A stretch of 64,000 bases of DNA from Candidatus Uhrbacteria bacterium (GTDB lineage: Bacteria > Patescibacteriota > Patescibacteriia > UBA9934 > GWF2-40-263), in assembly GCA_016844925.1 (NCBI GenBank), contig JAERTI010000038.1:66936-130935 (forward strand), given 5' to 3'. How positions within the stretch are numbered: position 1 is the stretch's first letter; every line of letters begins with the position of its first letter. The position numbers and the translations under genes are program-made. The notes below the pieces were generated by a model. The model searched no databases. It was not told where the DNA came from and saw nothing but the letters and a program-made list of their open reading frames with translations. Below, in pieces: positions 39,000 through 58,596 of the stretch.

Positions 39000-39497
39000 A
39001 TGGCAAAACCAACGGGACTATTTATTGGAAGTTTTCAGCCCTACCACATCGGGCATCATCTCGTTATTCAAGGGATGACAAAGTTGTGTGGCAAGGTGGT
39101 GATCGCGATCGGGAGCTCAGAGAAGTCTGGGACGCCCGAGCATCCATTTACCGCACAGGAGCGCAAAGAGATGATTCAGGCAGCGCTTCAGGACGAGGAT
39201 ATTATTCCGATGTTCGATATCGTCTTCATCGAGGTGCCTGATATGGATGATGATGGCGCTTGGGCAGATCATGTATTGGAGAAGGCTGGAGAGGTGGATG
39301 TTGTTTGGTCAGGGGACGAGTCTACTCAGAAGTGTTTTGAAGGAAAGAAAGAGATCAAGGAGATCAAGGAGGTGCCAGGCATTAGTGCCACGGGCATTCG
39401 AGAACAGATTAAAGTTGACGGCGACTGGCGCGACAAGGTGCCTGCAGCTGTTGTAAAAGCGATGAGCGACCTTGGTGGGCGCAAGCGCATGGGCTAG
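39000..39497 (+). CDS. nicotinamide-nucleotide adenylyltransferase, archaeal/NadM type
   Basis: GSFQPYHIGH (H/TxGH nucleotidyltransferase motif) near the N-terminus. About 165 aa, matching the length of archaeal-type NMNAT. Confidence 0.7.
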   Translation: MAKPTGLFIGSFQPYHIGHHLVIQGMTKLCGKVVIAIGSSEKSGTPEHPFTAQERKEMIQAALQDEDIIPMFDIVFIEVPDMDDDGAWADHVLEKAGEVDVVWSGDESTQKCFEGKKEIKEIKEVPGISATGIREQIKVDGDWRDKVPAAVVKAMSDLGGRKRMG

Positions 39498-43305: not shown

Positions 43306-43349
43306 TCTTATGAAATAAAATCCCGGTGTCTTCCGGGTTTTTTGTTTGA

Positions 43350-43378
43350 AAATAAATACCCACCCAGCGTTGGGTGGG
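43350..43378 (-). terminator. rho-independent terminator (minus strand) with GGGTATTTATTT tail
   Basis: Reverse complement reads cccacccaacgctgggtgggtatttattt. Confidence 0.6.
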
Positions 43379-43395
43379 GGAGCGACATATTGTCG

Positions 43396-44136
43396 CTAGC
43401 TGACGATACGACGACGGCCGCACCAACCCTTCCAGGTGGCGCAGTCGGCGCCGCACAGGATGGCCTCCAGGACCAGGTTCACCTGGTCGAGGTTCTTGGC
43501 TTCCGGCAGGCAGATGTCCGTGAGGATCACCGAGTCGCCGTTGGTGGACAGGTGGTGGCGGACCGACACTTCGATCGGTTCCTGGTCGTCGATCTGCACT
43601 TCCCAGGCTCCTGCCTTCGGGCGCTGCTCTCCAGCGATGATGTCGAGCTTCACGTCCACGAGCTTCTCGGCGTGCTCTTCGGCCCAGGTGTCCACGAAGC
43701 CCTGAGAGCCGGTCTGACGAAGGCCGCTGCAGCGAATCGCCACCACACCTTCTTCACGCCAGAACTTGGGTTCGACCCGGGACTTGTTCCGTCCGTTGTA
43801 GGCGGACTTGAGAACGGGGTGGGTCTTGAGGGAGCCCATCCAGTTGGACACGCGCTTGTTCTTGACCCAGCCCTCGTCCGTGCGGACCATGGTGTGGCCT
43901 GCCTCCTCTTCGAAGGTTTTCAGGACTTCATCAGGACAGTTGTCCAGCTCATGCTGAGCTCTATCCGCCAGCGTCACGAAGATGTCCCTGGGGGACTCGC
44001 TGAAGGGAACGATCTCGGGGAGCTTGTCCGACTCGGCCAGGCCCGTGTTGGGCGTGCGCTGCTCCCACCGGTAGTAGGTGTAGGGCACCAGGCCGAGCTT
44101 CTCGAGCCCGATCACGATGGTGTACGACAGTTTCAT
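43396..44136 (-). CDS. hypothetical protein
   Basis: 246 aa, GC-rich. The C-terminus CGADCATWKGWCGRRR contains several Cys residues. Confidence 0.5.
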   Translation of the reverse strand: MKLSYTIVIGLEKLGLVPYTYYRWEQRTPNTGLAESDKLPEIVPFSESPRDIFVTLADRAQHELDNCPDEVLKTFEEEAGHTMVRTDEGWVKNKRVSNWMGSLKTHPVLKSAYNGRNKSRVEPKFWREEGVVAIRCSGLRQTGSQGFVDTWAEEHAEKLVDVKLDIIAGEQRPKAGAWEVQIDDQEPIEVSVRHHLSTNGDSVILTDICLPEAKNLDQVNLVLEAILCGADCATWKGWCGRRRIVS

Positions 44137-44292
44137 CTCTCACCTCTGTGTGCTGCACGCCAGAGTCCGGTGTAGCCCAGTAGCTCTTTTGTGTCAGCAG
44201 TGCGTCCGGAAAACATCTTCCGCGACGGCGTAAACGTAGGGAAAACCGTGGCGAGTGTCAATAGTTCGTGTCTTGTATAGGGCTCTGATTAT

Positions 44293-44326
44293 TGACAAAA
44301 GGCCTAAAAATGCCTATGGTGCTGGG
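44293..44326 (+). promoter_or_regulatory. sigma70-like promoter TTGACA-N17-TATGGT
   Basis: Near-consensus boxes about 55 nt upstream of the USP start. Confidence 0.55.
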
Positions 44327-44382
44327 TCTTTACGGCCGGAAAAGCTGGCCGTGAATACACGTTCTTCATACAAGGAGGGGTC

Positions 44383-45003
44383 ATGTTCGCAAGAGCGCTT
44401 GTCCCTGTGAGAGCCCAACAGTGGGTGCAAGGAGCCGCCGCCATGGCGCTTCAGATCGCTCTGGTGAGCGAAGAGTACGTCGAGTTGGGAGAGACCCAAG
44501 TCGATGCCGACACGGTGGTGCTCACCGGAGAGTTGCTGGGACGTTCAGACGTGCACCAGCTGCTGCCGTTCGAAGAGCGGGAGATCTGCCTGCGGGCGGA
44601 CCGGTGCATCTTCGTGCCGTTCGGGTCTCGTGAGTCTGGTGTGCGTGCTGCCGAGGTGGCACTGCCGCTGGCTAGGCATCTGGGGATGAAGGTCCTCTTC
44701 TACCACACCACGTGGCATCAGCCGGGACTGGACTCGTCCATTCCCGACGCGCACATGTGCGAGGACGCCAAGGGGATTCTCGAGCAGCTCAAGAAGATGG
44801 GGCACGAGGGCCAGGTGGCCTTCGAGTACCAGATCGAGCTGGCGGCGGACGTTCTCGAGGGCATCATCCTCGCGGCGCTGGTGCACAAGGCATCACTCAT
44901 CGTCACGGCTCGCGGCACCATGGTACGCATCGGCTCCTACGCCGAGCGTCTCTCTGGTGGCCCCGTACCCGTGCTCATCTGCGCGCAAGAGGAGGGAAGC
45001 TGA
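44383..45003 (+). CDS. universal stress protein (UspA family)
   Basis: C-terminal ...ASLIVTARGTMVRIGSYAERLSGGPVPVLIC USP ATP-binding motif. Confidence 0.65.
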   Translation: MFARALVPVRAQQWVQGAAAMALQIALVSEEYVELGETQVDADTVVLTGELLGRSDVHQLLPFEEREICLRADRCIFVPFGSRESGVRAAEVALPLARHLGMKVLFYHTTWHQPGLDSSIPDAHMCEDAKGILEQLKKMGHEGQVAFEYQIELAADVLEGIILAALVHKASLIVTARGTMVRIGSYAERLSGGPVPVLICAQEEGS

Positions 45004-46235
45004 TGAAACGCTTTTTCCACTCGCCCTACACCGTGATGGGTGTCGTGCTGGTCATGTACCTGATCAAGGTCACGGCCAAGCTCGGCATCGGCATGCGTGT
45101 TCATTCGCCGATGATCACCGGTGACGGCTGGCACAACGTGGCGGACATTTTCGAGGCCTTGATGGTCATCGGGGTGATCTTCTTCTCGCGCCTGCCGGCC
45201 TCCGACAGCTACCCGCTGGGTCGCAAGAACATCGAGAGTCTGTTCTCGGTGCTGGTGGGTGTCGGTCTGGCGCTCGCCGCGTGCAGCGTCATCTGGTCAT
45301 CCATCAGCGGCGCCATCGCCCTGAGTGCTGGGGCTCCTGCTGGTGTCCTGATCTCGTGGGAGTTCGCTCCCTGGGTCATGGGTGTCACGCTCGGTAGCGC
45401 CCTGCTGTCGATGGGTGTCTCGCGCTACCAGATCAAGATCGGACGCGATTCCGGGCACGAGGCCCTGGTCGCCGACGGTGAAGAAACCCGCAGCGACGGC
45501 CGCATCGAGCTGGCCACGTTCATCGGCGTGTGTGGGGAGTACTTCTTCCACTCGCCGTGGATCGAGTACCCGTTCGCGCTGATCGTTGCCTATCTCATGT
45601 TCAAGACGGCCTGGGAGATCTTCAACCGAGGCTGGGGCGCGCTGATGAAGCGTTCCATCGGCCTGGGGCACGAGCAGCAGATTCGGTTGCTGGTGGAGGA
45701 CCTGCCGGGGGTGGTCGAGGTCGACGAGATCAAGACTTTCCGGACCGGCAGCAAGGTCATTCTCATCCTCAAGGTGCTGACGCGCCAGGATTCGAGGATC
45801 AACCGTTTGCTGAAGAAGGCCATGGCGGTGCACATCGCTCAGTACCTGCGCAGCGAGGAGTTCGAGGACGGGGACTTCTTCATTCGGTTCGACGAGCCGG
45901 ACCCGGAGCGCTTCCGGCGGGCGGTGGCGGTGCACACGTACCGCGGCAATCTGGAGATCACGCGTGAGCTTGATACGGCTGATGCGGTGATGATCTGTGA
46001 CATCGAGCACGGGAGGGTGGTGCGTGCCACGCGGCACGAGTGCGATCTCTCGTACGACGACCGGATGGCTCGGGTGCACTGGTTCAGAGACCTGCTGGTT
46101 CAGAAGCGGGCGGTGGAGCTGGTGGTGTTCGAGGAGCGGACCGAGTTTGGTCTGATCGACGCTCACATGCTCAAGAGGTGTGGCATCAAGCTGACCAACG
46201 CGGCGGGGCGAGACCCTGTCATCTACGGGCTCTAG
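45003..46235 (+). CDS. cation diffusion facilitator (CDF) family efflux transporter with extended C-terminal domain
   Basis: The start overlaps the USP stop (TGATG). TM region with the CDF signature (HxxxD-like GDGWHNVADI, SRLPASDSYPLGRKNIE). About 410 aa. Confidence 0.7.
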   Translation: MKRFFHSPYTVMGVVLVMYLIKVTAKLGIGMRVHSPMITGDGWHNVADIFEALMVIGVIFFSRLPASDSYPLGRKNIESLFSVLVGVGLALAACSVIWSSISGAIALSAGAPAGVLISWEFAPWVMGVTLGSALLSMGVSRYQIKIGRDSGHEALVADGEETRSDGRIELATFIGVCGEYFFHSPWIEYPFALIVAYLMFKTAWEIFNRGWGALMKRSIGLGHEQQIRLLVEDLPGVVEVDEIKTFRTGSKVILILKVLTRQDSRINRLLKKAMAVHIAQYLRSEEFEDGDFFIRFDEPDPERFRRAVAVHTYRGNLEITRELDTADAVMICDIEHGRVVRATRHECDLSYDDRMARVHWFRDLLVQKRAVELVVFEERTEFGLIDAHMLKRCGIKLTNAAGRDPVIYGL

Positions 46236-46244
46236 ACGAGCTGT

Positions 46245-46274
46245 GCGATCCTTACGCAAAGGGTCGCTTTTTTG
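46245..46274 (+). terminator. rho-independent terminator
   Basis: gcgatccttacgcaaagggtcgcttttttg. Nearly identical to 53022-53049. Confidence 0.65.
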
Positions 46275-46280
46275 TTTCCC

Positions 46281-46310
46281 AAAATAAATACCCGCCATGC
46301 GTTGGCGGGG
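46281..46310 (-). terminator. rho-independent terminator (minus strand) with GGGTATTTATTTT tail
   Basis: Reverse complement reads ccccgccaacgcatggcgggtatttatttt. Confidence 0.6.
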
Positions 46311-46317
46311 TGTCGCT

Positions 46318-46785
46318 TCACTGGGTGAAGTGGCCGTCCATGTAGTTGTCCATGCAGATCTCACCTTCGGCGAGCAGACGGACGGTCTTTCGGGTGACGA
46401 GGATCTGCGGGGGGAACAGGTCGACAGCATCGTCCAGGAGGCAGTTCACGCTTTCGGCGGCGTCGGACTCTTCGACACGGAATCGCAGGCGCTTGTCGTC
46501 GTGGCGCATGTGATCCATGTGACGCTGAGCGGCGCGCAGGGCCATGGTGTCGTTGGGGAACTCGCCGTCGGCGTAACAGACGCGGATGTAGGTGGATCCA
46601 CGGATGAGATGCCAGCGGATGGTTGCCCAGTGAGTGGATTGGTCATCCAGGCCGGTGAGCTTGATGCTCATGGCGTGCACGCGTCGGACCAGCTTGAGCT
46701 TGGGTCGCGCGTTGCGTCGGGTTGATGGGCGGGGGGTTGACGTGGTGGGGACGAGGCCGAACAGGGCGGCAATGAGTCCTCTCAC
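46318..46785 (-). CDS. hypothetical protein
   Basis: 155-aa ORF, GC-rich. The true start may be an internal Met (MSIKLTG). Confidence 0.4.
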   Translation of the reverse strand: MRGLIAALFGLVPTTSTPRPSTRRNARPKLKLVRRVHAMSIKLTGLDDQSTHWATIRWHLIRGSTYIRVCYADGEFPNDTMALRAAQRHMDHMRHDDKRLRFRVEESDAAESVNCLLDDAVDLFPPQILVTRKTVRLLAEGEICMDNYMDGHFTQ

Positions 46786-46912
46786 GTGGTCTCCTTTCTT
46801 GCGCGGATGCGCAGGGTGTTGACCGTCTCAGGGCGAGACAGACGCCTCAACCTAATCGCTTTTTGTTGTTTTGTCAATGAAAAGCCCCCGCTTGCGTAGC
46901 GGGGGTTGCGTA

Positions 46913-47983
46913 CTAATCGCTCGAATCCAGGAGCGACTTCGTGCCGGCCGTGGGGCCGGGGAGGAGCGGGCGGGTGCCGGCTCCGGGGACGTGCAGCGGG
47001 TCGCTGGGCGTTCCCTTTCCAACCAGGGCGATGGACTTCATCACCGTGGCGACGTTGATGGTGCCGTGCTGGGTTGGCAGCTGGCGGCTCTTGAGCTGTC
47101 CGGTGAACAGGGCGAGCTGGCCGGTCATGGCGGCGATGGTGCCGAGCATGACGTCCACGATGCGCCGGGGATCGTTCAAGGGGACGATGGCCTCGGGGCT
47201 GGGGAGCATGCGCTCCCAGTACGGGCGGATGGCGTCGGCCTTGGCTCCGTAGTAGGCGCCGGTGTCGAACAAGATGGTGAAGAGGTTCATCCGGCGTGAG
47301 AGCAGGGTGAAGACGCTCTTGGCATCCATGAGGTCCGAGGGGACGTCCAGGTCCAGCCAGCGCCTCACCAGCGGGGCGCTGATGCGGTCGCAGCCGGCCT
47401 CGTCCGTGATGATCCAGGTGTAGACGTTGCGCGCCTGGCTCACATCCACCTGCTGGAGAAGGTAGTAGGCGACGAGCTCGGGGGTTTCCGAGCCCTGGCC
47501 TCCACCACCGCAGTTCATGTAGAAGGACGAGAGGATCTGGTCCAGTTCCTGTTCGCGGCCGAAGCGTGCGACCTGGACCGCGTGGCTGTCCGTGCGGGCG
47601 TCACCGAAGCAGATGAACAGGATCTCGAGGTCGTCGCTTCCCAGGTAGGTCACGGCTTCCTGCCACATCAGCGGCAGGCGCTTGAAGATCTCCTCGGGGT
47701 TGTCGCCCATCGAGCCCGTCACATCACAGGCGACGATCAAGACGTTGGCCGCCGTGGCGACCAGCTTGTGCGTGGCCGTGGGAATGGGCGTCGACGCGGT
47801 CTGCGTGAACGCCTTACGCGGCGGGGGCTTGGGGGCGCTGACCGGCGGCGTGTCCGGGCCGATCTTCTGTACGCGAGGATTCTTGTGCGCGGAGACCGCG
47901 CGAGAGAACCAGCCGCCAGTCTGCTGGCGCGTGGGGGGCGTGTTGTGCGAGTCGTTGCGGACCCAACCGAATGCTCCAGACAT
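46913..47983 (-). CDS. von Willebrand factor A (vWA) domain protein
   Basis: MIDAS-type LIVACDVTGSMGD. A Pro/Thr-rich linker lies N-terminal to the vWA fold. 356 aa. Confidence 0.7.
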   Translation of the reverse strand: MSGAFGWVRNDSHNTPPTRQQTGGWFSRAVSAHKNPRVQKIGPDTPPVSAPKPPPRKAFTQTASTPIPTATHKLVATAANVLIVACDVTGSMGDNPEEIFKRLPLMWQEAVTYLGSDDLEILFICFGDARTDSHAVQVARFGREQELDQILSSFYMNCGGGGQGSETPELVAYYLLQQVDVSQARNVYTWIITDEAGCDRISAPLVRRWLDLDVPSDLMDAKSVFTLLSRRMNLFTILFDTGAYYGAKADAIRPYWERMLPSPEAIVPLNDPRRIVDVMLGTIAAMTGQLALFTGQLKSRQLPTQHGTINVATVMKSIALVGKGTPSDPLHVPGAGTRPLLPGPTAGTKSLLDSSD

Positions 47984-47993
47984 GATGTACTCC

Positions 47994-48770
47994 TTAGCGA
48001 AGCTTGAAGGCTTCGCGGGTTGCTGTGCGGCCGAAGATGGTTTTACGGAGTCCGGCCAGCTCCTGGTTCAGTTTGCGTGCGTCCTGTGGGCGGGCCATGG
48101 GGTCGCGTCGGATCATCTTGGCGATGAAGGTGCTCAGCCGTGGATCCATGTCCTGCGGCAGCGCACCGTTCATCACATTGCCGCCACTAAGAGCAACGGC
48201 GGTCATCCCCAGCGAGAAGATGTCACTGGCGGGGATGGGCGGGAGTCCCTGCTGGAACTCTGGCGGGATGAAGTGCGGCGTGCCGCCCTTGGCTCGTGCG
48301 TCCGCTCCAGGGCCCACGATGGTCAGCCCGAAGTCCACCAGCACAGCGTTGTGCGTGGGGATGTCCAGGATGATGTTCGCTGGCTTGATGTCGCAGTGCA
48401 CGGCCCGCATGTAGTGCAGGTAGCTCAGGGCATCGAGCACACGCTGGAGGATCCAGCAGATGTGTTCATCGTGCACAGGGCCTTTGCGCTGCAGGACGTC
48501 CGCCAGACTTTCACCCTCGATGTAGGACATCACGGCCACCTGACCGAAGTCTGGATGCTCGAGGTAGTCCTTGAGGGTGGGGAGGCTGACGTGATGGATG
48601 CCCCAGAGGATCTTGGCTTCCTCGCGGAAGAGATCCATGTAGGCAGGGTCACCCGTCTTCTCTTGCTTGATGCAGACGGGTTCGCCCAGGAGCCTGTGCC
48701 GCCCGAGGAAGGTGCGTCCGAACGCTCCTTCTGAGATTTGGCGCTCGACTTGGTAGTTGCCGATCTTCAT
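47994..48770 (-). CDS. serine/threonine protein kinase (kinase domain only)
   Basis: GAFGRTF glycine loop, the VCIK lysine, catalytic HCDIKPANIIL, DFG and PPE motifs. 258 aa with no sensor or TM domain. Confidence 0.85.
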   Translation of the reverse strand: MKIGNYQVERQISEGAFGRTFLGRHRLLGEPVCIKQEKTGDPAYMDLFREEAKILWGIHHVSLPTLKDYLEHPDFGQVAVMSYIEGESLADVLQRKGPVHDEHICWILQRVLDALSYLHYMRAVHCDIKPANIILDIPTHNAVLVDFGLTIVGPGADARAKGGTPHFIPPEFQQGLPPIPASDIFSLGMTAVALSGGNVMNGALPQDMDPRLSTFIAKMIRRDPMARPQDARKLNQELAGLRKTIFGRTATREAFKLR

Positions 48771-49912
48771 GCCTTCTCCAGGGTGAAGAGGGTTTTGAGG
48801 GTTTCTGCCAGACGGTTGAGGCCGCGGGCGCTGCGATCAGGGTCGAGGTCGTTCAGGTAGTGAATGACGTGACCGTGACTGTGGCGCTCGGCAGTTGCCT
48901 GCAGTGTTTCGATCTTGCGCTGCGCGCTCCACTGGTGCTTGCCAATGCGCTTGAGCGTTGTGGCGTCGATCTTGCGCTTGTCTGCGAGAGCCTCTCGGTC
49001 CGTGGCTTCCACCACGATGGCGTTGCCGCTCACCATGGCGCTCATGTTCATCTCGGCAAGCTGCGCCCACTCCACGATCACCAGTCCCTTGGCCTGCGCG
49101 AGTGCCTTGCGGTACAAGCGCATGACGTGAGGGGTGGTGAGGGCGTGGATCTGCGTACGCGTCTCGTCCGGGCAGTGAGGATCGAACAGGCGCGTCTTGA
49201 GCGCGTCCCGGTCGACTTCCTTGCCGTCAGCCGTCAGGACATCTGGGCCCAGGAGGGTGGCGAGGGTATCGCGGACCTTCTGTGCACCAGGAGTCGCCTC
49301 GACGTAGAGGTCGCGAATGAGCTGGTCGAAGTTGATATGCGTGGCGCCGAGGCGCGTTGCGAGCTCACCTGCGACGTAGCTCTTGCCGCTGGCCATCTCG
49401 CCGGTGATGCCGATGAGATGCCTGCCGAGCAGACGCTCTTCCAGCGCCGCCTTCACGAAGAGGGGGACGAAGGGAGAGATGTCGACATGGTGGCAGGTGA
49501 GAGCCTTCACGAGTGAGCTCGAGATTTCGCGGAGTTCCTGCCGCGCTGGCAGGAACTCGACAAGCTCAGAGAAGCCGGGGAGCAGGAGGTCGTGGTAGGC
49601 CATCTGCTGGGCTTCGTACGCCTGGTCCGTCTCGTTGCGGATGCCGCGGAAGACGCGGTCGCAGCCGTGCTGAATGAACGCATCGACCAGCAGGCCGGTG
49701 GAGGAGTGAACCTCGACGTTCTTGAGATGCTCCAGGGCGCGTCGCGTCATGGCGACACGCTCGCTCAGCGTGAAGGTGTAGCGGCCGCGCTTGGCATCGT
49801 TGTCAGCGATGAGCACGATCAGGGTGTCGCAGCGTGAGGCTGCACGAGTGATCAGATCAATATGGCCGAAGGTGATGGGATCGGCCGAGAGGGGAAGCAG
49901 TCCTGTGGTCAT
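48767..49912 (-). CDS. coaDE: fused phosphopantetheine adenylyltransferase / dephospho-CoA kinase (CoaD-CoaE)
   Basis: The N-terminal 160 aa align with CoaD (LLPLSADPITFGHIDLITRA, ISSSLVK). The C-terminal half aligns with CoaE (IGITGEMASGKSYVAGELATRLGA). The stop overlaps the kinase start by 4 nt. Confidence 0.8.
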   Translation of the reverse strand: MTTGLLPLSADPITFGHIDLITRAASRCDTLIVLIADNDAKRGRYTFTLSERVAMTRRALEHLKNVEVHSSTGLLVDAFIQHGCDRVFRGIRNETDQAYEAQQMAYHDLLLPGFSELVEFLPARQELREISSSLVKALTCHHVDISPFVPLFVKAALEERLLGRHLIGITGEMASGKSYVAGELATRLGATHINFDQLIRDLYVEATPGAQKVRDTLATLLGPDVLTADGKEVDRDALKTRLFDPHCPDETRTQIHALTTPHVMRLYRKALAQAKGLVIVEWAQLAEMNMSAMVSGNAIVVEATDREALADKRKIDATTLKRIGKHQWSAQRKIETLQATAERHSHGHVIHYLNDLDPDRSARGLNRLAETLKTLFTLEKA

Positions 49913-50121
49913 GGCCGTCTCCGGTTCAGTTGTAAGGATCTGTCTCTAGACTATCGAGATCTGCAAGGTGCGTACGCAAAACAAAGAACCGCCAGACTTG
50001 GTGTGAGTCTGGTGGGGAAGTTTGGCCCTAAGGTTAGGGGTGCTTGGTGGGGTTAGGGGAGTGGGTGTTGACGAAAAATCTCGTCGTCAGTATTGTAAAA
50101 ATAACACTTACCCACACCTGT

Positions 50122-50874
50122 ATGCCCACACCACTGAAAACACTTCTTAAGCGTCTTGGTCTTTCTGAAAAAGAAGCACAGGTCTATTTAGCCTCGCTTC
50201 GTCTTGGAGAAGCGACGGTGACGCAGATTGCCCATGGGATGAAGATGCAGCGCACGACCGTGGCGAGTATTCTTGATCGATTGCGCGAGCGTGGGTTGAT
50301 TACGCAGAAGACGTCTAAGGGCAGGCGTGTCTATTGGATCGAGGATCCGCACGTGCTTGTAGAGCATGAGCAGGCGCGTCTGCATGTGGTTGAGCAGATT
50401 GCTGGGCGACTTCATGCGCAGTATCACCAGGCGGACAAGAAACCAAGTGCGGAGGTGTTTGATACAAAGGAGGGGTTGCGGAAGTTGATAACGCGCGTGG
50501 TGGCTGAGCTGCGTAAGGGGGATGAGGTACTCACGTTTGAGTCACCGGCAGCGAATCACTATCAGGCCGTGCTGACAGATGAAATGTTTCACGCCCTGGC
50601 AAAACAGAAAGATAAAAAAGGTGTACAGACACGTTCGCTTGTTCCATCAGGACAGGAGGAGTCGATTCGTCCTGGGGCGCTTGAGCATAATGTGCAGGTG
50701 CGCGTAATGCCGCCGGGTGTGCTCGTGGAGTCGTCCTTCTGGATGTATCGCAATACCTTGGTGCTGTTCTCTGGGACACACACATTCGCCGTGGTGATTT
50801 CGCATCGTCACATGAAAGAGTCCATGGCGTCGCTGTTTGAGATGGCCTGGGCGCAGTCGCAGCCGATTGGTTGA
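50122..50874 (+). CDS. TrmB-family transcriptional regulator
   Basis: N-terminal wHTH LGLSEKEAQVYLASLRLGEATVTQIAHGMKMQRTTVASILDRLRERGLI. A TTGACG-N17-TATTGT promoter lies at 50068-50102. Confidence 0.7.
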   Translation: MPTPLKTLLKRLGLSEKEAQVYLASLRLGEATVTQIAHGMKMQRTTVASILDRLRERGLITQKTSKGRRVYWIEDPHVLVEHEQARLHVVEQIAGRLHAQYHQADKKPSAEVFDTKEGLRKLITRVVAELRKGDEVLTFESPAANHYQAVLTDEMFHALAKQKDKKGVQTRSLVPSGQEESIRPGALEHNVQVRVMPPGVLVESSFWMYRNTLVLFSGTHTFAVVISHRHMKESMASLFEMAWAQSQPIG

Positions 50875-50947
50875 CAATTGGCTGTTTTTTCTTTATTCTT
50901 TCGCGTTCGTGAGTCTCAGGCTTACGGCGTTTTCTGGAGGACAGAAC

Positions 50948-52180
50948 ATGAACCAGCAAGACATCGCTCAGGCAGTCAGACAGTTGGTGGGCGGATCCCA
51001 TCGGGTGATCGTCTGCGCCACCGGTTCCAACGGTGGCATCGACAAGTGGCTGACGGTGCCGGGAGCGAGCAGCTTCTACGACGGCTACAACTTCACCTAC
51101 AACCGGAACATGACCACCGAACTGATCGGTCAAGAGGTCGACGGGTCGTTCGTCTCGCCAGAGATGGCGATCCAGTTGGCGGCCGCGGGCTACGAGCGCG
51201 CGTGCAAGTACGCGGTGCTCGACGGTCAGGCTGGCCGGCCCATCATCGCGGTGGGGGTCACATCTTCGCTTCCGAGCGACTACGACAAGCGTAGTCCCAA
51301 CCAGGCGTACATCTGTGCACGCACGGCGAAGGGGTTCTTCCTCGTGCACTTGCAGCTTCCCAAGGAGCCTCGTCAGGATGAGGCTTTGAAGCGGATGTCT
51401 CTCTCTGAGCTTCAGGCCATCCGCGATGAGATGCGTGAAGAGCAGTCGCAGATCGTCGATCTGGTCGCGCTCAACACCATCCTGAAGTTGGCGGACGCTG
51501 AGCAGGTAGCCATGGAGGCAGCTGGGACTCGGTGCGAACAGTTCTACGGATTCCCTGGGTCGATGGCTGTCGAACCCCAGCGCATCGACGCCGACCCCGA
51601 GGACATCTTCGATCAGGTCTTCGGCCTCGATCAGGATCCCGTGATCGATCGGGTGAACTGGTCGGATTACGTCCTGTTCCCCGGCAGCTTCAACCCGCTG
51701 CACTACGGTCACCTGGCCATGGCGGGGTGGATGGAGTACCGGACCCAGCGCAAGGTGGTCTTCCAGATCTCCCAGCACCACCCGGTCAAGGTGGAGCTGG
51801 CTTTCAAGGAGGACTTGCTTCGCCGGCGCATGCGGCAGTTCCGCTACCGACATCCGGTGGTGGTGACCCGTCACGAGGGCCTCTACTTCGACAAGTCCAA
51901 GCGCTTCCCGGGCGCGCACATGCTTCTGGGCGCCGACGCACTGATGCACATGCTCAACCCGGAGTTCTACCCCGAGGGCGTGGTGTCCATCGTCAAGGAG
52001 CTCGAGGGGTGCCGGCAGCGAGGAACGGTCTTCTGGGTCGTGGATCGTCAGGTCGGTGACGACCTGCTCACGCTCGACAACATCGTCCTGCCGCCGGGGC
52101 CGTTCGACGACCTGTTCCAGCACCTGAGTGCGGTCAACACCATCTCCAGCTCGGAGATCCGCGCACAGCAGGGTCGCTAA
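50948..52180 (+). CDS. fusion protein: CinA-C/PncC-like (NMN deamidase) domain + NadD-like nicotinate-nucleotide adenylyltransferase
   Basis: N-terminal ATGSNGGIDKWLTVPGASSFYDGYNFTYN...GSFVSPEMAIQLAAAG matches the CinA C-terminal domain. C-terminal FPGSFNPLHYGH and ISSSEIR match NadD. RBS ggaggacagaacATG. Confidence 0.7.
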   Translation: MNQQDIAQAVRQLVGGSHRVIVCATGSNGGIDKWLTVPGASSFYDGYNFTYNRNMTTELIGQEVDGSFVSPEMAIQLAAAGYERACKYAVLDGQAGRPIIAVGVTSSLPSDYDKRSPNQAYICARTAKGFFLVHLQLPKEPRQDEALKRMSLSELQAIRDEMREEQSQIVDLVALNTILKLADAEQVAMEAAGTRCEQFYGFPGSMAVEPQRIDADPEDIFDQVFGLDQDPVIDRVNWSDYVLFPGSFNPLHYGHLAMAGWMEYRTQRKVVFQISQHHPVKVELAFKEDLLRRRMRQFRYRHPVVVTRHEGLYFDKSKRFPGAHMLLGADALMHMLNPEFYPEGVVSIVKELEGCRQRGTVFWVVDRQVGDDLLTLDNIVLPPGPFDDLFQHLSAVNTISSSEIRAQQGR

Positions 52181-52216
52181 GACCCACGCGAGTCCAAACG
52201 GGGCTCGCTTTTTTGA

Positions 52217-52245
52217 TTGACAGCGGAGGTGTTTCTCGGTAGGTT
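52217..52245 (+). promoter_or_regulatory. sigma70-like promoter TTGACA-N17-TAGGTT immediately after a terminator
   Basis: Hairpin cgagtccaaacggggctcg plus a T-tract at 52189-52215, then TTGACA. Confidence 0.5.
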
Positions 52246-52273
52246 TTGCTCTGGCTCAGTAAGGAGGAGACCA

Positions 52274-53005
52274 ATGGATTTGCCGATTTTGGTGCCCTGG
52301 ACAGTGAAGCGGGGAGTGACTCGCCCACACGAGAAAGAGGCACCTGAGGCGATGGTCTTCCGTCTCCTTGGTGTGCCTAGCTGCGACGAGGTTGAGATTC
52401 TCGACATCCAAGAGGGGGCCGTGCGGTTCCTTGCTGGTGGACGAGAGAGAGTCACTTCACTGAGCAGCGCCCGCATGTGGGCGCTCACTGGATGGCTTCT
52501 GACTCGGATGCACACACTCAGGGAAGACAGAACCTACGTCGAGCTTCTCGTGGTCCTGGGCCCAGGTGGTGACCTGTTGTGTCAGCGCAAGGACATGGAC
52601 TACCCGGAGGAGTCCTTCCGTGGGAAGTTGTCACTGTTTGGTGGCGGGGTTCACGAGGGGGAGTCGCGTCCGGGGGCCTGTGTTCGGGAATTGTACGAAG
52701 AGATTCGTGATCTGGTTACAGCCGACGAGATCGCCAACGCGCTCGAGGAAGGTCCGCTGCTGACATTTCCGTACCAGGGGGTGCGGTACCAGGCCGGGGG
52801 AACGATTGCTCGAGCACCGGACGCAGATACGTTCGAGCGCTGGCGTCGTGTCCTCTCAGATCCGGCGAACCTTGGTGAGGCGCAGCCCGCCTTTGTTCCA
52901 GGTTTTGATCTGGTGCCCATGATTGCCGAGCAGTGCCTGCAGCCCCTCAAGCACTTCGCTGGCGTTCACCACCTCGTCATCGCTGCTGTTCTTGCTTTGC
53001 CTTGA
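52274..53005 (+). CDS. Nudix hydrolase with N-terminal extension
   Basis: Nudix box GGGVHEGESRPGACVRELYEEIR. RBS aaggaggagaccaATG. 243 aa. Confidence 0.75.
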   Translation: MDLPILVPWTVKRGVTRPHEKEAPEAMVFRLLGVPSCDEVEILDIQEGAVRFLAGGRERVTSLSSARMWALTGWLLTRMHTLREDRTYVELLVVLGPGGDLLCQRKDMDYPEESFRGKLSLFGGGVHEGESRPGACVRELYEEIRDLVTADEIANALEEGPLLTFPYQGVRYQAGGTIARAPDADTFERWRRVLSDPANLGEAQPAFVPGFDLVPMIAEQCLQPLKHFAGVHHLVIAAVLALP

Positions 53006-53021
53006 GTACGAGGCTTCGCAC

Positions 53022-53079
53022 GCGATCCTACGCAAGGGTCGCTTTTTTGATTGACACACAGGGAGGACTCTCGTATTCT
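53022..53079 (+). promoter_or_regulatory. terminator (repeat of 46245-46274) fused to promoter TTGACA-N17-TATTCT
   Basis: gcgatcctacgcaagggtcgcttttttgaTTGACAcacagggaggactctcgTATTCT. Confidence 0.55.
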
Positions 53080-53104
53080 CGGTCTGGATTCAACAGGAGG
53101 TCCA

Positions 53105-53584
53105 ATGAGCACACTGGCAGGCCGAACCATTCTGTACCCCGTACCGGTTCCCGGAGGAGGAGAGAAGACCGAGACCTTCGTTCTGGGAGATGGAGAGATG
53201 GCGCTCGTCGAAGCGATGACGAGCGCAGGTCTCTCGCGAGATCACTTCTGGGCCTACATGGCCGAGACCTACCCCAGGCACGTGATGGCGCCGCAGTGGC
53301 GTCGAGACTCGGGGACGCGGGGCGGTGTCGACGTCGCGGAGTTCATCCGTGCGATCCCGAGCGACCCTCGCTGGGTCGAGATGATCCAGATGTTCTACAC
53401 GGGCCGCTACGACGGCGAGCTCACCGAGGACATCACGCCGCCGGTGATGGCGCTCATCATGTGGGTCAAGGGAGAGGACTTCCTCTCCTTCCGCCACTGG
53501 GTGGAGTTCCTCGAGGCGGTGCAGAACCGTCCGAGCTCCGTCGCCAAGAAGCTCGGGATGTCCGAGGAGGGACCCCGGCTCTGA
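53105..53584 (+). CDS. hypothetical protein, paralog A of a tandem pair
   Basis: RBS aggaggtccaATG. Shares FW.Y.AE.YP....AP.WRR.SGT..G......RAIP.D with the next gene. GC-rich. Confidence 0.55.
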   Translation: MSTLAGRTILYPVPVPGGGEKTETFVLGDGEMALVEAMTSAGLSRDHFWAYMAETYPRHVMAPQWRRDSGTRGGVDVAEFIRAIPSDPRWVEMIQMFYTGRYDGELTEDITPPVMALIMWVKGEDFLSFRHWVEFLEAVQNRPSSVAKKLGMSEEGPRL

Positions 53585-53630
53585 CGAGCACACGGCTCGC
53601 GCTCCGACAACGACGTCGGGGCTTTTTTGT

Positions 53631-53658
53631 TTGACACCTCTTGGGGGTTTGTTAGGAT
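53631..53658 (+). promoter_or_regulatory. promoter TTGACA-N16-TAGGAT after terminator
   Basis: ccgacaacgacgtcgggg hairpin plus T-tract at 53604-53629, then TTGACA. Confidence 0.45.
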
Positions 53659-53682
53659 CCTTCGCGAAAGGAGGGATGTTTC

Positions 53683-54186
53683 ATGAACCCTCTTGAGACC
53701 GGCAAGGTGCTCTATTCGGTGTACGAAGGAGACCGACAGGTGATCAAGGAGCACACGCTCACTGCTGGGGAGAGGCTCATCCTGGAGACGATGGACGAGC
53801 ACGAGTACACTCTGGACATCTTTTGGGGCTACCTGGCCGAGATGTACCCCGAGTGTCCCGAAGCTCCGGCCTGGCGACGTCGGTCTGGAACGACCAACGG
53901 CATCCTGGTGAGTCGGTACCTGCGCGCGATTCCCAACGACCGTCATGGCTACTCGGTCTGGCGTCGTTGGATCCGCGAACGGTTCTTCCGTCGGTTCGAC
54001 GACGTTGTCGAAGCGCCGGGGGACGATGTGCGTGAGGAGGCCATGGCCATGGTGCTGTGGCTGAACCAGATCGTTTTCGTCGAGCACGAGGCCTGGGTGC
54101 CGTTCGTGCAGGCGTCGCGTCGCACGCTTCGCTACAAGCCCTCCAAGGAAGCTCGGCTTCGCGAGCAGGAGGCACTCTCGGCCTAG
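53683..54186 (+). CDS. hypothetical protein, paralog B of a tandem pair
   Basis: RBS aaaggagggatgtttcATG. Homologous over its full length to 53105-53584. Confidence 0.55.
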   Translation: MNPLETGKVLYSVYEGDRQVIKEHTLTAGERLILETMDEHEYTLDIFWGYLAEMYPECPEAPAWRRRSGTTNGILVSRYLRAIPNDRHGYSVWRRWIRERFFRRFDDVVEAPGDDVREEAMAMVLWLNQIVFVEHEAWVPFVQASRRTLRYKPSKEARLREQEALSA

Positions 54187-54253
54187 CGCCGATCCGAGGT
54201 ACGCAACCTCGGATTTTTATTTGGCAAAAAGAAAACGACCCAGCGGGTCGAAG

Positions 54254-54670
54254 TTAGGCGTCGGTCATAAGGAGGCTCATGACTTGATCGCGGAGCACTT
54301 GCTCCGGAAGGTGTTCGTGGGCAGACCAGCGTTGCAGATCCTCGGGACTGACGTCGAGGTGGACCTGTAGCTGGTCGGCGAGGTGGGGGTGGTTAACTCT
54401 CACCAGCAGGATGATGTGCGCGTACACGTCATCCGGCCACGAGAGGAAGGTGTCGAGTTGGACAGAAAGTCTGTCTCTTTGACCCTCGTGAGGAAGCGAT
54501 TTTCCCACGGACCATCGTGCCAGGTCGCTCGGAAGGGTCTTGATGTGCGTGGCCAGTACGAGGTGGGCGAACGTCGGGAGACGAGCAAGGAGCGTCTCGA
54601 TGCGGCGCCGAAACGTCTGCTGGGTCGATGATCTGACGAGCATGGAGACCTTTCTGTGATCGTAGCTCAC
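54254..54670 (-). CDS. hypothetical protein
   Basis: 138-aa ORF, GC-rich. No recognisable domain. Confidence 0.4.
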   Translation of the reverse strand: MSYDHRKVSMLVRSSTQQTFRRRIETLLARLPTFAHLVLATHIKTLPSDLARWSVGKSLPHEGQRDRLSVQLDTFLSWPDDVYAHIILLVRVNHPHLADQLQVHLDVSPEDLQRWSAHEHLPEQVLRDQVMSLLMTDA

Positions 54671-54749
54671 GGTGGCAGCGTGGGGTAAGTCTATCGCTGG
54701 CTCCTAAGAGGGTCAAGAAAAAACCACCCGTGCGTCGGGTGGGGGTAGA

Positions 54750-55388
54750 TCAGGCCGCGAGGGACTCGAGCTCGCGAGCGATGTTCTCGCGGGCGTGGGC
54801 CTCCAGGGCGTGGCGCAGCTGCGGCGTCTGGTAGATGTGCGGCCTCTCGAGGAACGTGCGCATGAACCTGGCGCGTAGGAGCTCGTAGTCATCTCCACGG
54901 ATCCAGCCGTACTCCTTGCGGATGTCCGTGGTGTACGCGTCGTAGCGCTCGCGGGTCGCGCCAAGGATGGCCAGGTCGATGTCGTTCACCCAGCAGGTGG
55001 CGTTGTCGTCCGAGGCAGCGTGACCCTTGGTGGCCATGATGAGCGCCTCCACGCGGGTGACCACCGGCAGCGAGAGCATCTGCGAGTCCTGGAGCCCGGA
55101 GTCCGTCAGGAAGACGGTTCTGAACTGCAGTGCACTGCTCTGCTCGTTGTCCATGTTCTCGGGGACGTAGACGGCATCGTGCCAGAAGAGCGCAAGCGCG
55201 ACGAGAGCTGGGTTCTCCATGTGAGAGCGGTGCTGCTGCCAGAGAGCGAAGCACTCGTCCAGGTGCTGGCGCGTGTGGTAGTGCCGCTGAGGCATCCCAT
55301 ACTGACGCATCAGCATGTTGAATACGTCGCGCCGGGGCGGAAGGCCCCAGGTCTCCATGATCAGTTTCCAGATTTCGTACAGCCTCAT
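54750..55388 (-). CDS. HD-superfamily phosphohydrolase-like protein
   Basis: H..H...D...LALFWHDAVY arrangement of His/Asp typical of HD domains. 212 aa. Confidence 0.5.
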   Translation of the reverse strand: MRLYEIWKLIMETWGLPPRRDVFNMLMRQYGMPQRHYHTRQHLDECFALWQQHRSHMENPALVALALFWHDAVYVPENMDNEQSSALQFRTVFLTDSGLQDSQMLSLPVVTRVEALIMATKGHAASDDNATCWVNDIDLAILGATRERYDAYTTDIRKEYGWIRGDDYELLRARFMRTFLERPHIYQTPQLRHALEAHARENIARELESLAA

Positions 55389-55599
55389 GATTTCTCCTTG
55401 GAGAGAGGGGATTATGCCGTATCTTAGCGGCTTGTCAAGGTAGGTAGATCGTACAGGAGTTCTCTGATAGATGTGCGATCACGCAGCGGTGCTCATGCTG
55501 TGTAAGAAAAACTCCCGCTGTTGTTGAGTCATTCTTTCAAGACATAACGATGAAAGATTTCGTCAAAAGAAAAACCACCCGTGCGTCGGGTGGGGGTGT

Positions 55600-55989
55600 C
55601 TAGCGGATGCGGATGTCCGCGAGGCGGTCGGCCAGGACCCGAAGCATAGGATCGTGGCCACGCTCATCCAGGACGACATGCGTTGAATGTGGGACGTGCG
55701 TCCACTGGAGTTTGTCGGCTTCTGGGTGCACCAGAATGAACTCGACGACACTGTTGACGAGGTGCAGGGCGTAGACCAGCCGGAGCATCTCTGGCTGGCA
55801 GTAGATCAGGCACAGTCGGACGGTGTCACCGCAGGCTGATACGTCCGAGAGTGCTTCCTCGATGCTGGACCAGCGGCACAGTGGAGTGAGTCCCGCATGC
55901 GAGATCATCTGGTGGGCGCGACGGTCGACGTCTGCTGGGGCTTGGTCCATGCCCACAAGGTAGGCGCTGACGCCTCGAACCTTACTCAC
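55600..55989 (-). CDS. hypothetical protein (degenerate receiver-like fold?)
   Basis: 129 aa with an alternating beta/alpha pattern. Its start overlaps the stop of the upstream gene (ATGA). Confidence 0.4.
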   Translation of the reverse strand: MSKVRGVSAYLVGMDQAPADVDRRAHQMISHAGLTPLCRWSSIEEALSDVSACGDTVRLCLIYCQPEMLRLVYALHLVNSVVEFILVHPEADKLQWTHVPHSTHVVLDERGHDPMLRVLADRLADIRIR

Positions 55990-56405
55990 GAGGATCTCCC
56001 AGGCGCGCGCTCGGCGATCTTGTCGAGTTCGGCGCGGAGCCAGGTGAGGATGCGTTTGTTGGTGACACGTGTCATGTGAGGGTTGATGGCTGCCCCGACA
56101 AGCATCTCAACGGTGATGGACTCACCCTTGAGACGATGACGTTCGGCATCGATTCCGGTGCGCGCGCTCGAGTCGTCGTAGCGCTTGGGGCCCTCGCCGG
56201 TCAAGAGGTAGGTACTCGTCGGTCCGCGTGCCAGATTGGTCTCGGCGAACACGATGTCTTGCTGACTTGCTCGGAGAAGTTCCAGAGCGGTTCTTCCTTC
56301 GTTGGACCCGAGAAACTTCTTGAGCTCTCTGATGGCCCGATGGTCAGGTGGCGTACGCTGGTGGCTCCGGTAGCGCGCAGCGGCCTCCTCCCATTTGGCA
56401 GACAT
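55986..56405 (-). CDS. hypothetical protein
   Basis: 139 aa, GC-rich, coupled to the downstream ORF. Confidence 0.4.
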   Translation of the reverse strand: MSAKWEEAAARYRSHQRTPPDHRAIRELKKFLGSNEGRTALELLRASQQDIVFAETNLARGPTSTYLLTGEGPKRYDDSSARTGIDAERHRLKGESITVEMLVGAAINPHMTRVTNKRILTWLRAELDKIAERAPGRSS

Positions 56406-56510
56406 ATCCTCTCCTATGATTGGATGTGTGCGCCTGAAGAATGGCCGTTTTTTGTACTTGTGTCAATTGATCTCTTGACACCTTCCGGCTTGTGAGATCT
56501 CTGTAATTTG

Positions 56511-56580: not shown

Positions 56581-58596
56581 ATGAAATTTGAACTCAAATC
56601 AAACTACAAACCTGCGGGCGACCAACCAAAGGCGATCAAGCAATTGGTGGCTGGTCTTGAGGATGGCCAGCCGCACCAAACACTCTTGGGTGTCACCGGA
56701 TCGGGAAAGACGTTCACGATGGCGAACGTGATTGCGCAGACGCAGCGTCCGACGTTGGTGATCGCGCACAACAAGACGCTCGCGGCACAGCTGTGCAATG
56801 AGTTCAGGGAGTTTTTTCCAGATAATGTCGTGGAGTACTTTGTGAGTTACTACGATTACTACCAGCCTGAGGCCTACATGGCTCGCTCTGATACGTACAT
56901 CGAGAAAGAGGCAATGATTAACGATGAGATTGATCGATTGCGACATGCGGCCACGCAGGCATTGCTATCTCGTCGAGATGTGATCATTGTGGCGAGTGTT
57001 TCATGCATCTATTCATTGGGGAGCCCTGATGAGTATAAGAAGACCGTGTTACATCTCACGGTGGGAGATGAGGAGATGACGCGTACAGAGATTTTAAAGA
57101 GGCTCGTCTCCATGCAGTTTGATCGGACAACGGCGGATTTGGTGCGCGGATCGTTTCGGGCGCGTGGAGATGTGTTGGAGATTATGCCGATGAATGAGGA
57201 GGTGTTGTATCGGTTGCTTCTGGAAGATGAGAAGGTCATGACCATCCAGCAGCTCGATCCTGTCTCACGAAAGATTCAAGATACGTTGCAGGACATCTGG
57301 TTGTTTCCAGCCAAGCACTATGTTGTTTCCACGACGTCGCAGCAACGGGCGCTTAAGGCGATCCGCGCGGAGCTGAAGCAGCGACTGAAGGAGTTTGATA
57401 AAGATGGAAAGGTGCTTGAGGCCGAGCGATTGTCTCGGCGTACGCGTTATGACTTGGAGATGATTCAGAATATCGGGTACTGCAACGGCATCGAGAATTA
57501 CAGTTCACATTTTGAGGGGCGTGAGCCTGGGGAGCCGCCGTTCACGTTGATCGACTATTTTCCAGATGACTTCCTGACGATTATCGACGAGTCTCACGTG
57601 ACCGTTCCGCAGGTCGGAGCGATGTACAACGGAGACAAGGCGCGTAAGGAGAGTCTTGTCGAGCATGGGTTCCGGCTGCCGTCTGCTAAAGACAACCGTC
57701 CGCTGAAGTTTGTGGAGTTTGAAGATCGAATGAATCAGGTGATTTACACAAGCGCCACGCCGGGAGTGTATGAGAAGAAGGTATCGGGCAAGCCGGTGGA
57801 GCAGATTATTCGTCCAACAGGACTTGTCGACCCGGTGATCACAATTCGACCCGTGAGTGCGGATGAGAAGTATGACGGGCAGGTAGAGGATTTGATCCAG
57901 GAGGTTGAGAAGCGTGTTCAGATGAAAGAGCGAACACTGGTGACGACGCTGACCAAGAAGATGGCTGAGGACCTGACAGAGTTCCTCGTCGAGAGGGGGA
58001 TTAAAGTGCAGTATCTCCACTCGGATGTGAAAACGTTTGATCGTGTGCAGGTGCTCTCAGATTTGCGAAAGGGATTGTATGACGTCGTGGTGGGAGTGAA
58101 CTTGCTGCGTGAGGGGCTCGATCTGCCAGAGGTGACATTGGTAGCGATCCTTGATGCGGACAAAGAGGGATTCCTGCGCTCGGAAACGTCCATTGTTCAG
58201 ACAATCGGTCGTGCAGCTCGGAACGTGAAGGGGGAAGTGATTCTGTATGCCGACAAGATGACAGGCTCTCTGGAGAAGGCAATTAAGGAGACGGAGCGTC
58301 GTCGAAAAATTCAAATTGCCTACAACAAGAAGCACGGCATTACCCCTAAGACGGTTGCGAAGGAGATTAAGGACATGCGGGAGATGCTGGGGGTTGAAGG
58401 GGAGACGGATGTCAAAGAGATCCTCAAGTTGGAGCTGATAGCGGAGCCACATGAGCTCAAGGTCGTGATTAAAGAAAAGGAATACGACATGAAGGAGGCG
58501 GCGAAGAAGTTGGACTTTGAGACGGCGGCGCTGCTGAGAGATGAGATTGATCTTCTGAAAAAAGAACTCGAACAAAAAAAGAAGAAGCGTAAGTAG
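56581..58596 (+). CDS. uvrB: excinuclease ABC subunit B
   Basis: Helicase motifs GVTGSGKT and DESH. C-terminal UVR domain [14 protein letters not shown]. Confidence 0.95.

Follow-up and report, generated by a model that had tools for sequence, protein, structure and literature searches.

A CinA/PncC-like domain joined to a NadD-like adenylyltransferase in a variable island of a Candidatus Uhrbacteria genome

The DNA analysed here, called the window, is a stretch of 64,000 nucleotides from a Candidatus Uhrbacteria bacterium (GenBank assembly GCA_016844925.1, contig JAERTI010000038.1, positions 66,936 to 130,935 of the forward strand), and positions below are counted from its first letter. Five consecutive plus-strand genes code for a TrmB-type regulator, a fusion of a CinA/PncC-like domain with a NadD-like domain, a Nudix hydrolase and two small paralogous proteins. 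An initial annotation, made from the sequence alone, had read these genes as one module centred on nicotinamide adenine dinucleotide (NAD). The five open reading frames (ORFs) are all present, and their starts were refined by ribosome-binding sites. Judged by its conserved residues and the gene context of its viral relatives, the fusion is most likely a nicotinamide mononucleotide (NMN) adenylyltransferase with a non-deamidating NMN-binding domain, and not an enzyme leading from NMN by way of nicotinic acid mononucleotide (NaMN) to nicotinic acid adenine dinucleotide (NaAD). The genes are as follows.

50122-50874, plus strand: TrmB-family winged-helix regulator, 250 aa, with an N-terminal helix-turn-helix (HTH) domain (PF01978, E 5e-13)
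50948-52180, plus strand: fusion protein, whole gene, 410 aa in a single ORF
50948-51517, plus strand: N-domain of the fusion (residues 1-190), CinA/PncC fold, with Gly39, Ser41 and Tyr51 kept, Thr25 and Thr56
51653-52180, plus strand: C-domain of the fusion (residues 236-410), HIGH-superfamily, with GSFNPLHYGH (246-255) and SSSEIR (400-405)
52274-53005, plus strand: orphan Nudix hydrolase, 243 aa, with the Nudix box at residues 124-146 (52643-52711), REx2EE intact and a Pro at +15
53105-53584, plus strand: paralog A, 159 aa, of an orphan family with the motif AYMAETYP...APxWRxxSGTxNG
53683-54186, plus strand: paralog B, 167 aa, of the same orphan family as paralog A

Domains and residues of the fusion protein

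The homology of the N-domain became visible with a family profile or a structure model, direct searches being blind to it. In Pfam, the fusion matched the C-terminal cytidylyltransferase-like domain PF01467 alone (residues 243-406, 33.3 bits against a cut-off of 21), with no match in the first 230 residues (PF02464 none at E <= 0.01), and direct searches of the N-domain in NCBIfam (PncC none at E <= 0.1) and among PDB sequences gave no match. With a profile of 42 family sequences (A1), the N-part matched the CinA structure 2A9S with an E-value of 1.4e-4 and the C-part matched NadD 8AIH with 6e-4. The hhalign comparison of the N-domain with E. coli PncC gave an E-value of 3e-5 over 155 columns, and a hidden Markov model (HMM) of the N-domain retrieved E. 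coli PncC. The AlphaFold2 (AF2) model of the fusion had a pLDDT of 85.9, and its top 17 Foldseek matches all belonged to the CinA superfamily (E 2e-5 to 3e-4, probability 1.0, TM 0.6-0.69). These comparisons of profile and model show the N-domain to be homologous to CinA/PncC and to have the same fold. The initial annotation was right in joining a CinA/PncC-like and a NadD-like domain in one protein, and its match to CinA_C/PncC holds, though below the sensitivity of Pfam.

In PncC, catalysis depends on a Ser/Lys dyad, S29/K61 in EcPncC and S31/K63 in AtCinA, where both alanine mutants are dead, and the phosphate of NMN is bound in AtCinA by G46/S48, Y58 and R145 (PMC5384747). In an ungapped HMMER register, K61 of E. 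coli PncC aligned with Thr56 of the fusion, a position that was never Lys in the 42 A1 sequences or in about 30 cellular and viral members aligned on the N-domain HMM. The nucleophile S29 aligned with Thr25, and this position is T, A, S or C across the family. The G-x-S residues (Gly39/Ser41) are invariant and Tyr51 nearly so, in the same register as the residues of PncC that hold the NMN phosphate. Arg163 is also invariant and lies in the last, equivalent helix, with an uncertain register against R142/R145, and Lys139 is nearly invariant in the family. The consecutive deamidase and NaMN adenylyltransferase steps of the initial annotation are not borne out, the catalytic Lys being absent from every aligned member inspected.

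In the C-domain, H252-Y-G-H255 and S400-S-S-E-I-R405 are invariant in the 42 sequences, and NadD/NMNAT models head the weak NCBIfam and PDB matches. The best match to a NadD, NadM or NadR equivalog was TIGR00482, with 24.4 bits against a cut-off of 112.45. These motifs predict an intact HIGH-type pyridine-mononucleotide adenylyltransferase. The window codes also for a canonical enzyme of this kind:

39000-39497, plus strand: NadM-type NMN adenylyltransferase, 165 aa (NCBIfam NF002243, E 2e-32; TIGR01527, E 4e-28), with GSFQPYHIGH intact

This NadM is 75% identical to the copy at locus L001 and is kept in a synteny block of related Parcubacteria; its presence makes the fusion a second, accessory NMNAT-like enzyme.

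Strains differ by an indel of 12 aa in the long linker helix of the fusion (51349-51434), which has 410 aa here and 398 aa in L003, L008 and P0002. The indel, beside an adjoining Nudix gene whose protein is 100% identical across those assemblies, suggests mosaic recombination.

Distribution and viral gene context

A database search gave 64 relatives of the fusion, nearly all of 380-420 aa and with full-length coverage, from Parcubacteria (52-57% identity), from Acetobacteraceae, Stellaceae and the planctomycete Botrimarina (about 27%) and from one eukaryote. Taken with the viral members, the architecture is found in Parcubacteria, Alphaproteobacteria, Planctomycetes, a eukaryote, huge phages and giant viruses. 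In the species of the window the fusion is one ORF in six independent assemblies, and this, together with more than 60 homologues of the same architecture, shows that it is neither an artefact of assembly or frameshift nor unique. The initial annotation knew of no description of such a fusion: we likewise found no paper that describes a PncC-NadD-type fusion or a CinA-like domain in an NAD-rebuilding role (de Souza and Aravind 2012 may hold one), but the architecture, extending from bacteria to giant viruses, is not rare. The neighbourhoods of the distant bacterial homologues (L002, L012-L014) showed no recurring neighbour and no NAD genes.

Scanning of IMG/VR for the family gave 33 loci, including phage contigs of 447-452 kb and metagenome-assembled genomes of giant viruses, and INPHARED held a 485-kb phage with a fused ORF that, at 32% identity, is the closest relative of the fusion outside the candidate phyla radiation (CPR). 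By domain HMMs, the N- and C-domains are fused in 16 of the viral loci and coded by adjacent separate ORFs in 9, as in L036, with the N ORF running to 4886 and the C ORF beginning at 4893; the C-domain stands alone in 8. A NAMPT gene was found within 5 kb in 15 of the 25 viral loci with both domains, or in 11 of 21 when duplicates are left out, and in none of the 8 with the C-domain alone. A NadM-Nudix-like or Nudix gene adjoins in L016/17, L038/39, L040 and L047.

NARP2 is defined as Nampt plus Nmnat (bioRxiv 10.1101/2024.02.11.579819). The phage routes described combine NadV with NadM or NadR (PMC9503650; bioRxiv 10.1101/2024.02.11.579819; PMC13464706), and in a survey of viral NAD systems the adenylyltransferases were NadM and NadR only (PMC9503650). 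The adjacency to NAMPT in viruses links the fusion family to this phage NAD-rebuilding chemistry. Deamidation beside NAMPT would be counter-productive, since NMN would be diverted to NaMN and NadE would then be required.

Two phage NadM-Nudix (NatV-like) proteins beside the fusion and NAMPT (L016, 439-1401; L038, 5512-6399) have a degenerate HxGH motif in the NadM-like domain, which reads FQTPSLRGYH in L016 and GRFQRPTINP in L038. This degeneration suggests that their own NMNAT activity was lost and displaced by the pair of CinA-like and NMNAT domains.

The mechanism we propose draws mainly on the viral gene context, with NAMPT beside the fused or adjacent domains and a Nudix gene often present. 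The C-domain would make NAD from NMN and ATP, possibly accepting NaMN as well, and the N-domain would bind NMN without deamidating it, as a module for capture, hand-over or allosteric control. The viral arrangement would represent a NARP2-like nicotinamide salvage, and in the bacterium of the window the fusion would act as an accessory second NMNAT alongside the canonical NadM. The best-supported inference is that the family provides the step of NMN adenylyltransfer, and the most interesting outcome is the family as such, an undescribed architecture of pseudo-PncC and NMNAT that partners NAMPT in large viruses.

Several points weigh against this interpretation. A tblastn search with two viral NAMPTs found no NAMPT in the 64-kb window, and none lies near the fusion in its cellular relatives, so that the viral context may not hold for the bacterial protein; some of the IMG/VR contigs may, besides, be mis-assigned cellular DNA. 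With NadM already in the window, a plain NMNAT role would be redundant and the true substrate could differ; the preference for NMN or NaMN is not readable from the sequence. Thr25 might serve as nucleophile with another base, for example the nearly invariant Lys139. For the neighbouring genes, the recurrence of the fusion-Nudix neighbourhood in phages may mean that the insertion of the Nudix gene was functionally selected and not incidental, and the paralogs described below, which follow the NMNAT directly in L049 and the fusion in three lineages, could still have a link to NAD.

The neighbouring genes and the copA-uvrB island

The Nudix hydrolase, whose Nudix domain is recognised by Pfam, found only itself among 5.8e9 proteins. 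Its ATG follows an AAGGAGG ribosome-binding site, which sets the N-terminal extension at about 85-90 aa; the initial annotation had the enzyme class right but the extension, put at about 100 aa, too long. Enzymes of the NudC type have, besides the Nudix box, an SQPWPFPxS array further downstream and a Cys motif that binds zinc, and Nudix enzymes of the ADP-ribose pyrophosphatase (ADPRase) type have a Pro about 15-16 residues after the box. The window protein has neither the SQPWPFPxS array nor a zinc site, its four Cys are scattered, and no NudC model or structure matched; its nearest family and structure matches in NCBIfam and the PDB were to MutT/NudI, with non-significant E-values. The NudC-like nature that had been proposed is not supported. 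A NadM-Nudix model gave a weak match (E 0.017) and the Pro at +15 is weakly ADPRase-like; by analogy with the Nudix domain of NadM-Nudix enzymes, the protein may plausibly trim NAD or ADP-ribose. BLAST of the window protein against the phage Nudix proteins showed no similarity. The gene has a G+C content at third codon positions (GC3) of 0.66, compared to 0.84 and 0.83 in the flanking genes, and this deviation, the lack of relatives and a duplicated junction (see below) point to a cassette that would have come in later, separating the fusion from paralog A.

Between paralogs A and B the identity is 31% (BLASTP E 4e-24), and the two share the motif quoted by the initial annotation, which had recognised no family for them. 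They had no match in Pfam, NCBIfam, PADLOC or PHROGs and none in IMG/VR. The AF2 model (pLDDT 75.6) showed a three-stranded sheet and a helical bundle, for which structure searches, BFVD included, gave no structural neighbour. The family comprised 6 clusters in a word-indexed search; searching 1.84e9 proteins exhaustively by HMM gave 14 representatives, and the family was present in 1 of 185,579 species genomes, so that it is not a widespread housekeeping family; an alignment of the family (A4) was too divergent to find loci, and a narrower one (A5) led to 1 genome locus and 2 metagenome loci. Tandem pairs occur in the window and in L051, and P0072, a fused double protein of the family, stands directly after NadM in L049/L050; the tandem pairs and the fused double make a (pseudo)heterodimer probable. 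From these features, the paralogs, members of a clade-restricted orphan family, probably act together as a small (pseudo)heterodimer with a binding or regulatory role.

The TrmB gene codes for an HTH domain of the TrmB type (PF01978, 49 bits against a cut-off of 25.6), which agrees with the regulator initially proposed, and for a C-terminal part of about 150 aa without a model match in Pfam or NCBIfam. Its GC3 of 0.59 is unlike that of the neighbouring genes, and it was present only in the same-species assemblies L003-L005. This gene is a species-specific putative regulator.

The promoters and terminators associated with the five genes are the following.

50068-50096, plus strand: promoter-like site of the TrmB gene, TTGACG-17-TATTGT
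50859-50899, plus strand: terminator hairpin of the TrmB gene (50859-50885), whose loop holds the -35 box of the fusion promoter (TTGACA-17-TATTCT)
52185-52222, plus strand: junction of the fusion terminator with a TTGACA box, repeated at 53019-53056 (79% identical)
53019-53079, plus strand: Nudix terminator and paralog A promoter, TTGACA-17-TATTCT
53601-53658, plus strand: paralog A terminator and paralog B promoter, TTGACA-16-TAGGAT with extended TG
54191-54215, plus strand: paralog B terminator, facing the terminator of the convergent gene 54254-54670

As the initial annotation had stated, each gene has its own terminator and promoter: hairpins with a T-run stand 5' of the fusion, Nudix, paralog A and paralog B genes and 3' of paralog B, and a TTGAC[AG] -35 box lies upstream of each of the five genes. 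The -10 box of the Nudix gene, TAGGTT, is weak and was missed by the promoter scan. The only hairpin before the TrmB promoter is on the minus strand (50012-49992) and presumably serves the divergent CoaD-CoaE gene. Scanning gave 7 promoter-like sites (2.6 ± 1.5 expected) and 16 terminator-like sites (8.7 ± 2.6 expected). The junction at 52185-52222 is orthologous to that of L001 between the fusion and a small paralog-family gene. Apart from the -35 box and the terminator junction that occurs twice, the five promoters showed no common operator, and the leaders held no Rfam element or riboswitch at the gathering threshold or at E <= 1.

Many terminators of the region have C-GCAA-G-type loops in common. 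In L001, a related metagenome-assembled genome, GAATGCACGAAT occurs four times as a direct repeat upstream of the fusion gene (7810-7925), with TTGAGTTGACAG coming after two of the copies. These repeats are possible operator sites, and they are absent from the window, where the TrmB gene occupies that place.

All five genes lie inside a variable island between copA and uvrB:

43338-56500, no strand: GC3-rich variable island of about 13 kb, bounded by copA (41206-43305) and uvrB (56581-58596)

Its GC3 is 0.7-0.9, compared to 0.59-0.64 in the flanks, and the same slot is likewise GC3-rich in L001 and L051. Besides the five genes the island carries those for a cation-diffusion-facilitator (CDF) transporter, a Ser/Thr kinase, an HD phosphohydrolase, a CoaD-CoaE fusion and a phrog_2971-like protein, and several orphans. 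The five genes with their individual signals are unlike the overlapping operon genes of the region at 22-42 kb. The window, L001/L009, L010 and L051 have in common a block in the order racemase, NadM-type NMNAT, DsbD_2, CopA, variable slot, uvrB and uvrA. The slot holds only a single paralog-family gene in L010 and L011, a tandem pair of the family with an HD phosphohydrolase in L051, and the fusion directly followed by one paralog-family gene in L001 and in the contig of P0004. As L010, L011 and L051 have the paralog family but no fusion, it is the slot upstream of uvrB that the family follows, whether the fusion is there or not. The TrmB, Nudix, CoaD-CoaE, kinase, phrog_2971-like and CDF transporter genes were seen in the slot only in the species of the window.

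This distribution argues against one NAD-centred module as initially proposed, since TrmB and Nudix are confined to this species and relatives carry the fusion with one paralog, or paralogs alone. Models of PADLOC-DB 2.0 recognised no defence system among the island genes: the TrmB protein had generic HTH/CARF-HTH matches, the Nudix hydrolase one sub-threshold match (PDC-S07, E 0.003), and the fusion and both paralogs none. We hold with moderate confidence that the five genes are independently transcribed single-gene cassettes in a compositionally distinct, variable island on the chromosome of a bacterium of the Parcubacteria, a CPR lineage, and not one co-evolving NAD system, the fusion being the accessory NMNAT proposed above and the Nudix gene a later arrival. 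What looked like a module would be unrelated cassettes assembled in an integration hotspot of a CPR genome.

Some further observations were made on the island. The minus-strand CoaD-CoaE gene (48767-49912) codes for a single protein of CoaD (PPAT; TIGR01510, 114 bits, above the cut-off) and CoaE (dephospho-CoA kinase), an architecture that resembles the eukaryotic CoA synthase. It overlaps the Ser/Thr kinase gene (47994-48770) by 4 nt, the phrog_2971-like gene (46913-47983) comes next, and the three look like one minus-strand operon. The HD-type phosphohydrolase (54750-55388, minus strand, 212 aa) matched phrog_19425 (E 5e-22) and nothing in Pfam or NCBIfam; it has an orthologue in the same slot of L051 (6856-7506) and is bracketed by identical 28-nt terminator repeats at 54719-54746 and 55570-55597. 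Two orphan minus-strand genes, 54254-54670 and 55986-56405, have orthologues in L001 (9888-10358 and 10556-11062) and no family match, and the first has an internal repeat (L.RWS....LP....RD). The gene 54254-54670 (window 54241-54715) is present in the assemblies L003 and L006 and absent from L004, L005 and L007, a gain or loss that is a cassette polymorphism at the population level. In L003, of the same species, an IS1595-family transposase (54-848) lies directly against the left end of the island (window 43344), where copA otherwise stands.

Alternative explanations and comparison with known systems

Other explanations have to be weighed against that of a cassette island with an accessory NMNAT. 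The most novel one extends the viral context further: pseudo-PncC and the NadD-like adenylyltransferase, fused or split, would form an undescribed third class of enzyme for NAD reconstitution, partnering NAMPT in huge phages and giant viruses and displacing decayed NadM, with the CinA-like domain in a new role (NMN capture, gating or unrecognised chemistry), and the fusion, Nudix, HD phosphohydrolase and paralog pair of the Parcubacteria island would be a phage-derived NAD-buffering cassette. In its full extent we regard this as tentative and rather unlikely.

Slightly less likely still, the copA-uvrB island would be the remnant or cargo of a phage or mobile element, whose cofactor genes (NMNAT-like fusion, Nudix, HD phosphohydrolase, CoaD-CoaE) jointly sustain the NAD and CoA pools in conflict with phages or with the host cell. 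The GC3 jump at the same slot in three species, the matches to the phage families phrog_19425 and phrog_2971 (E 5e-25 for the latter), the relationship of the fusion to that of the 485-kb phage, the transposase in L003, the repeated cassette-like terminator/promoter junctions and the polymorphism in gene presence are consistent with this. Against it, no integrase, structural or replication genes were seen in the island and no tRNA at its borders, and the slot is filled in distantly related genomes, which indicates an old hotspot and not a recent insertion. The chemistry of phage conflict evoked by the initial annotation fits the viral relatives beside NAMPT; a defence system is not supported by the PADLOC result.

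It is improbable that the paralogs are partners or regulators of NadM or of the fusion and form with the fusion the true conserved core of a unit for NAD homeostasis. L001/L009 and the P0004 contig each have a family member immediately behind the fusion, the fused double P0072 stands directly after NadM, and the terminator-promoter junction of the fusion, conserved across species, drives the small protein in L001. In L010, L011 and L051, however, the nearest neighbours of the paralogs are copA and uvrB, with NadM about 4 kb away; adjacency is weak evidence here, since all contexts belong to one clade with common synteny, and the family is absent from all other lineages and all viruses that carry the fusion.

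Equally doubtful is a true bifunctional NMN deamidase and NaMN adenylyltransferase which, with a NudC-like Nudix, would form a defence or counter-defence module from NAD through NMN and NaMN to NaAD, the paralogs serving as immunity proteins or regulators: the CinA fold beside a NadD-like domain, the adjacent Nudix with its intact catalytic box and one homologue annotated PncC by JGI are in its favour, but none of the aligned members has the catalytic Lys, the residue at the nucleophile position varies, Pfam gives no CinA match, the viral relatives adjoin NAMPT, whose product NMN needs no deamidation, with no NadE noticed there, signatures of NudC are lacking in the Nudix, relatives do not conserve the module and PADLOC recognised no defence system.

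For the accessory NMNAT that we prefer, the significance lies in the contest between phages and bacterial immunity, where depletion and rebuilding of NAD are a central battleground. The family points to a further type of adenylyltransferase, one whose NMN-deamidase domain is disabled and which occurs in huge phages, giant viruses and scattered bacteria. If the predicted activity is true, it would provide a new component for NARP2-like pathways and an instance of a deamidase fold put to new use in ligand binding, and database labels such as NaMN adenylyltransferase or PncC would have to be corrected.

Among known families, the window regulator shares with TrmB proteins the N-terminal winged-helix domain (PF01978), but has no match to their sugar-sensing C-terminal domain and falls far below the cut-off of full-length TrmB equivalogs. 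With NadD and other NMNATs the C-domain of the fusion shares PF01467 and the GSFNPLHxGH and SSSEIR motifs. It differs from them by the additional N-terminal CinA-like domain and linker of about 230 aa, by scores well short of all the equivalog cut-offs for NadD, NadM and NadR (24 bits against 112 or more), and by a gene context in the family that points to NMN, and not NaMN, as substrate.

Phage NARP2, exemplified by NadV and NatV of KVP40, and the bacterial NadM-Nudix enzymes are comparable in gene context, as the viral relatives adjoin NAMPT and often Nudix. The window fusion is likewise followed by a Nudix gene, which is unrelated in sequence to those of the phages. The type of adenylyltransferase differs, with CinA-like and NadD-like domains instead of NadM, and no NAMPT accompanies it in the 64 kb.

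The N-domain has the fold of the PncC/CinA C-terminal NMN deamidases (E. coli YgaD; A. tumefaciens 2A9S) and of the inactive paralogue YdeJ (5KOL), and keeps the G-x-S and Tyr positions; an invariant Arg lies in its last helix. It is below the PF02464 threshold, Lys is never present and Ser is replaced by T/A/S/C, and it is predicted to be non-deamidating; its partner is an adenylyltransferase, fused or adjacent, and not the COG1058/MocF domain. The two-domain CinA of Thermus thermophilus combines the COG1058 ADP-ribose pyrophosphatase with PncC (PMC4246079). Its PncC domain is catalytically active, and its partner domain and domain order differ from those of the fusion; the likeness between the two proteins is that a PncC-type domain is joined to a second enzyme of pyridine-nucleotide recycling.

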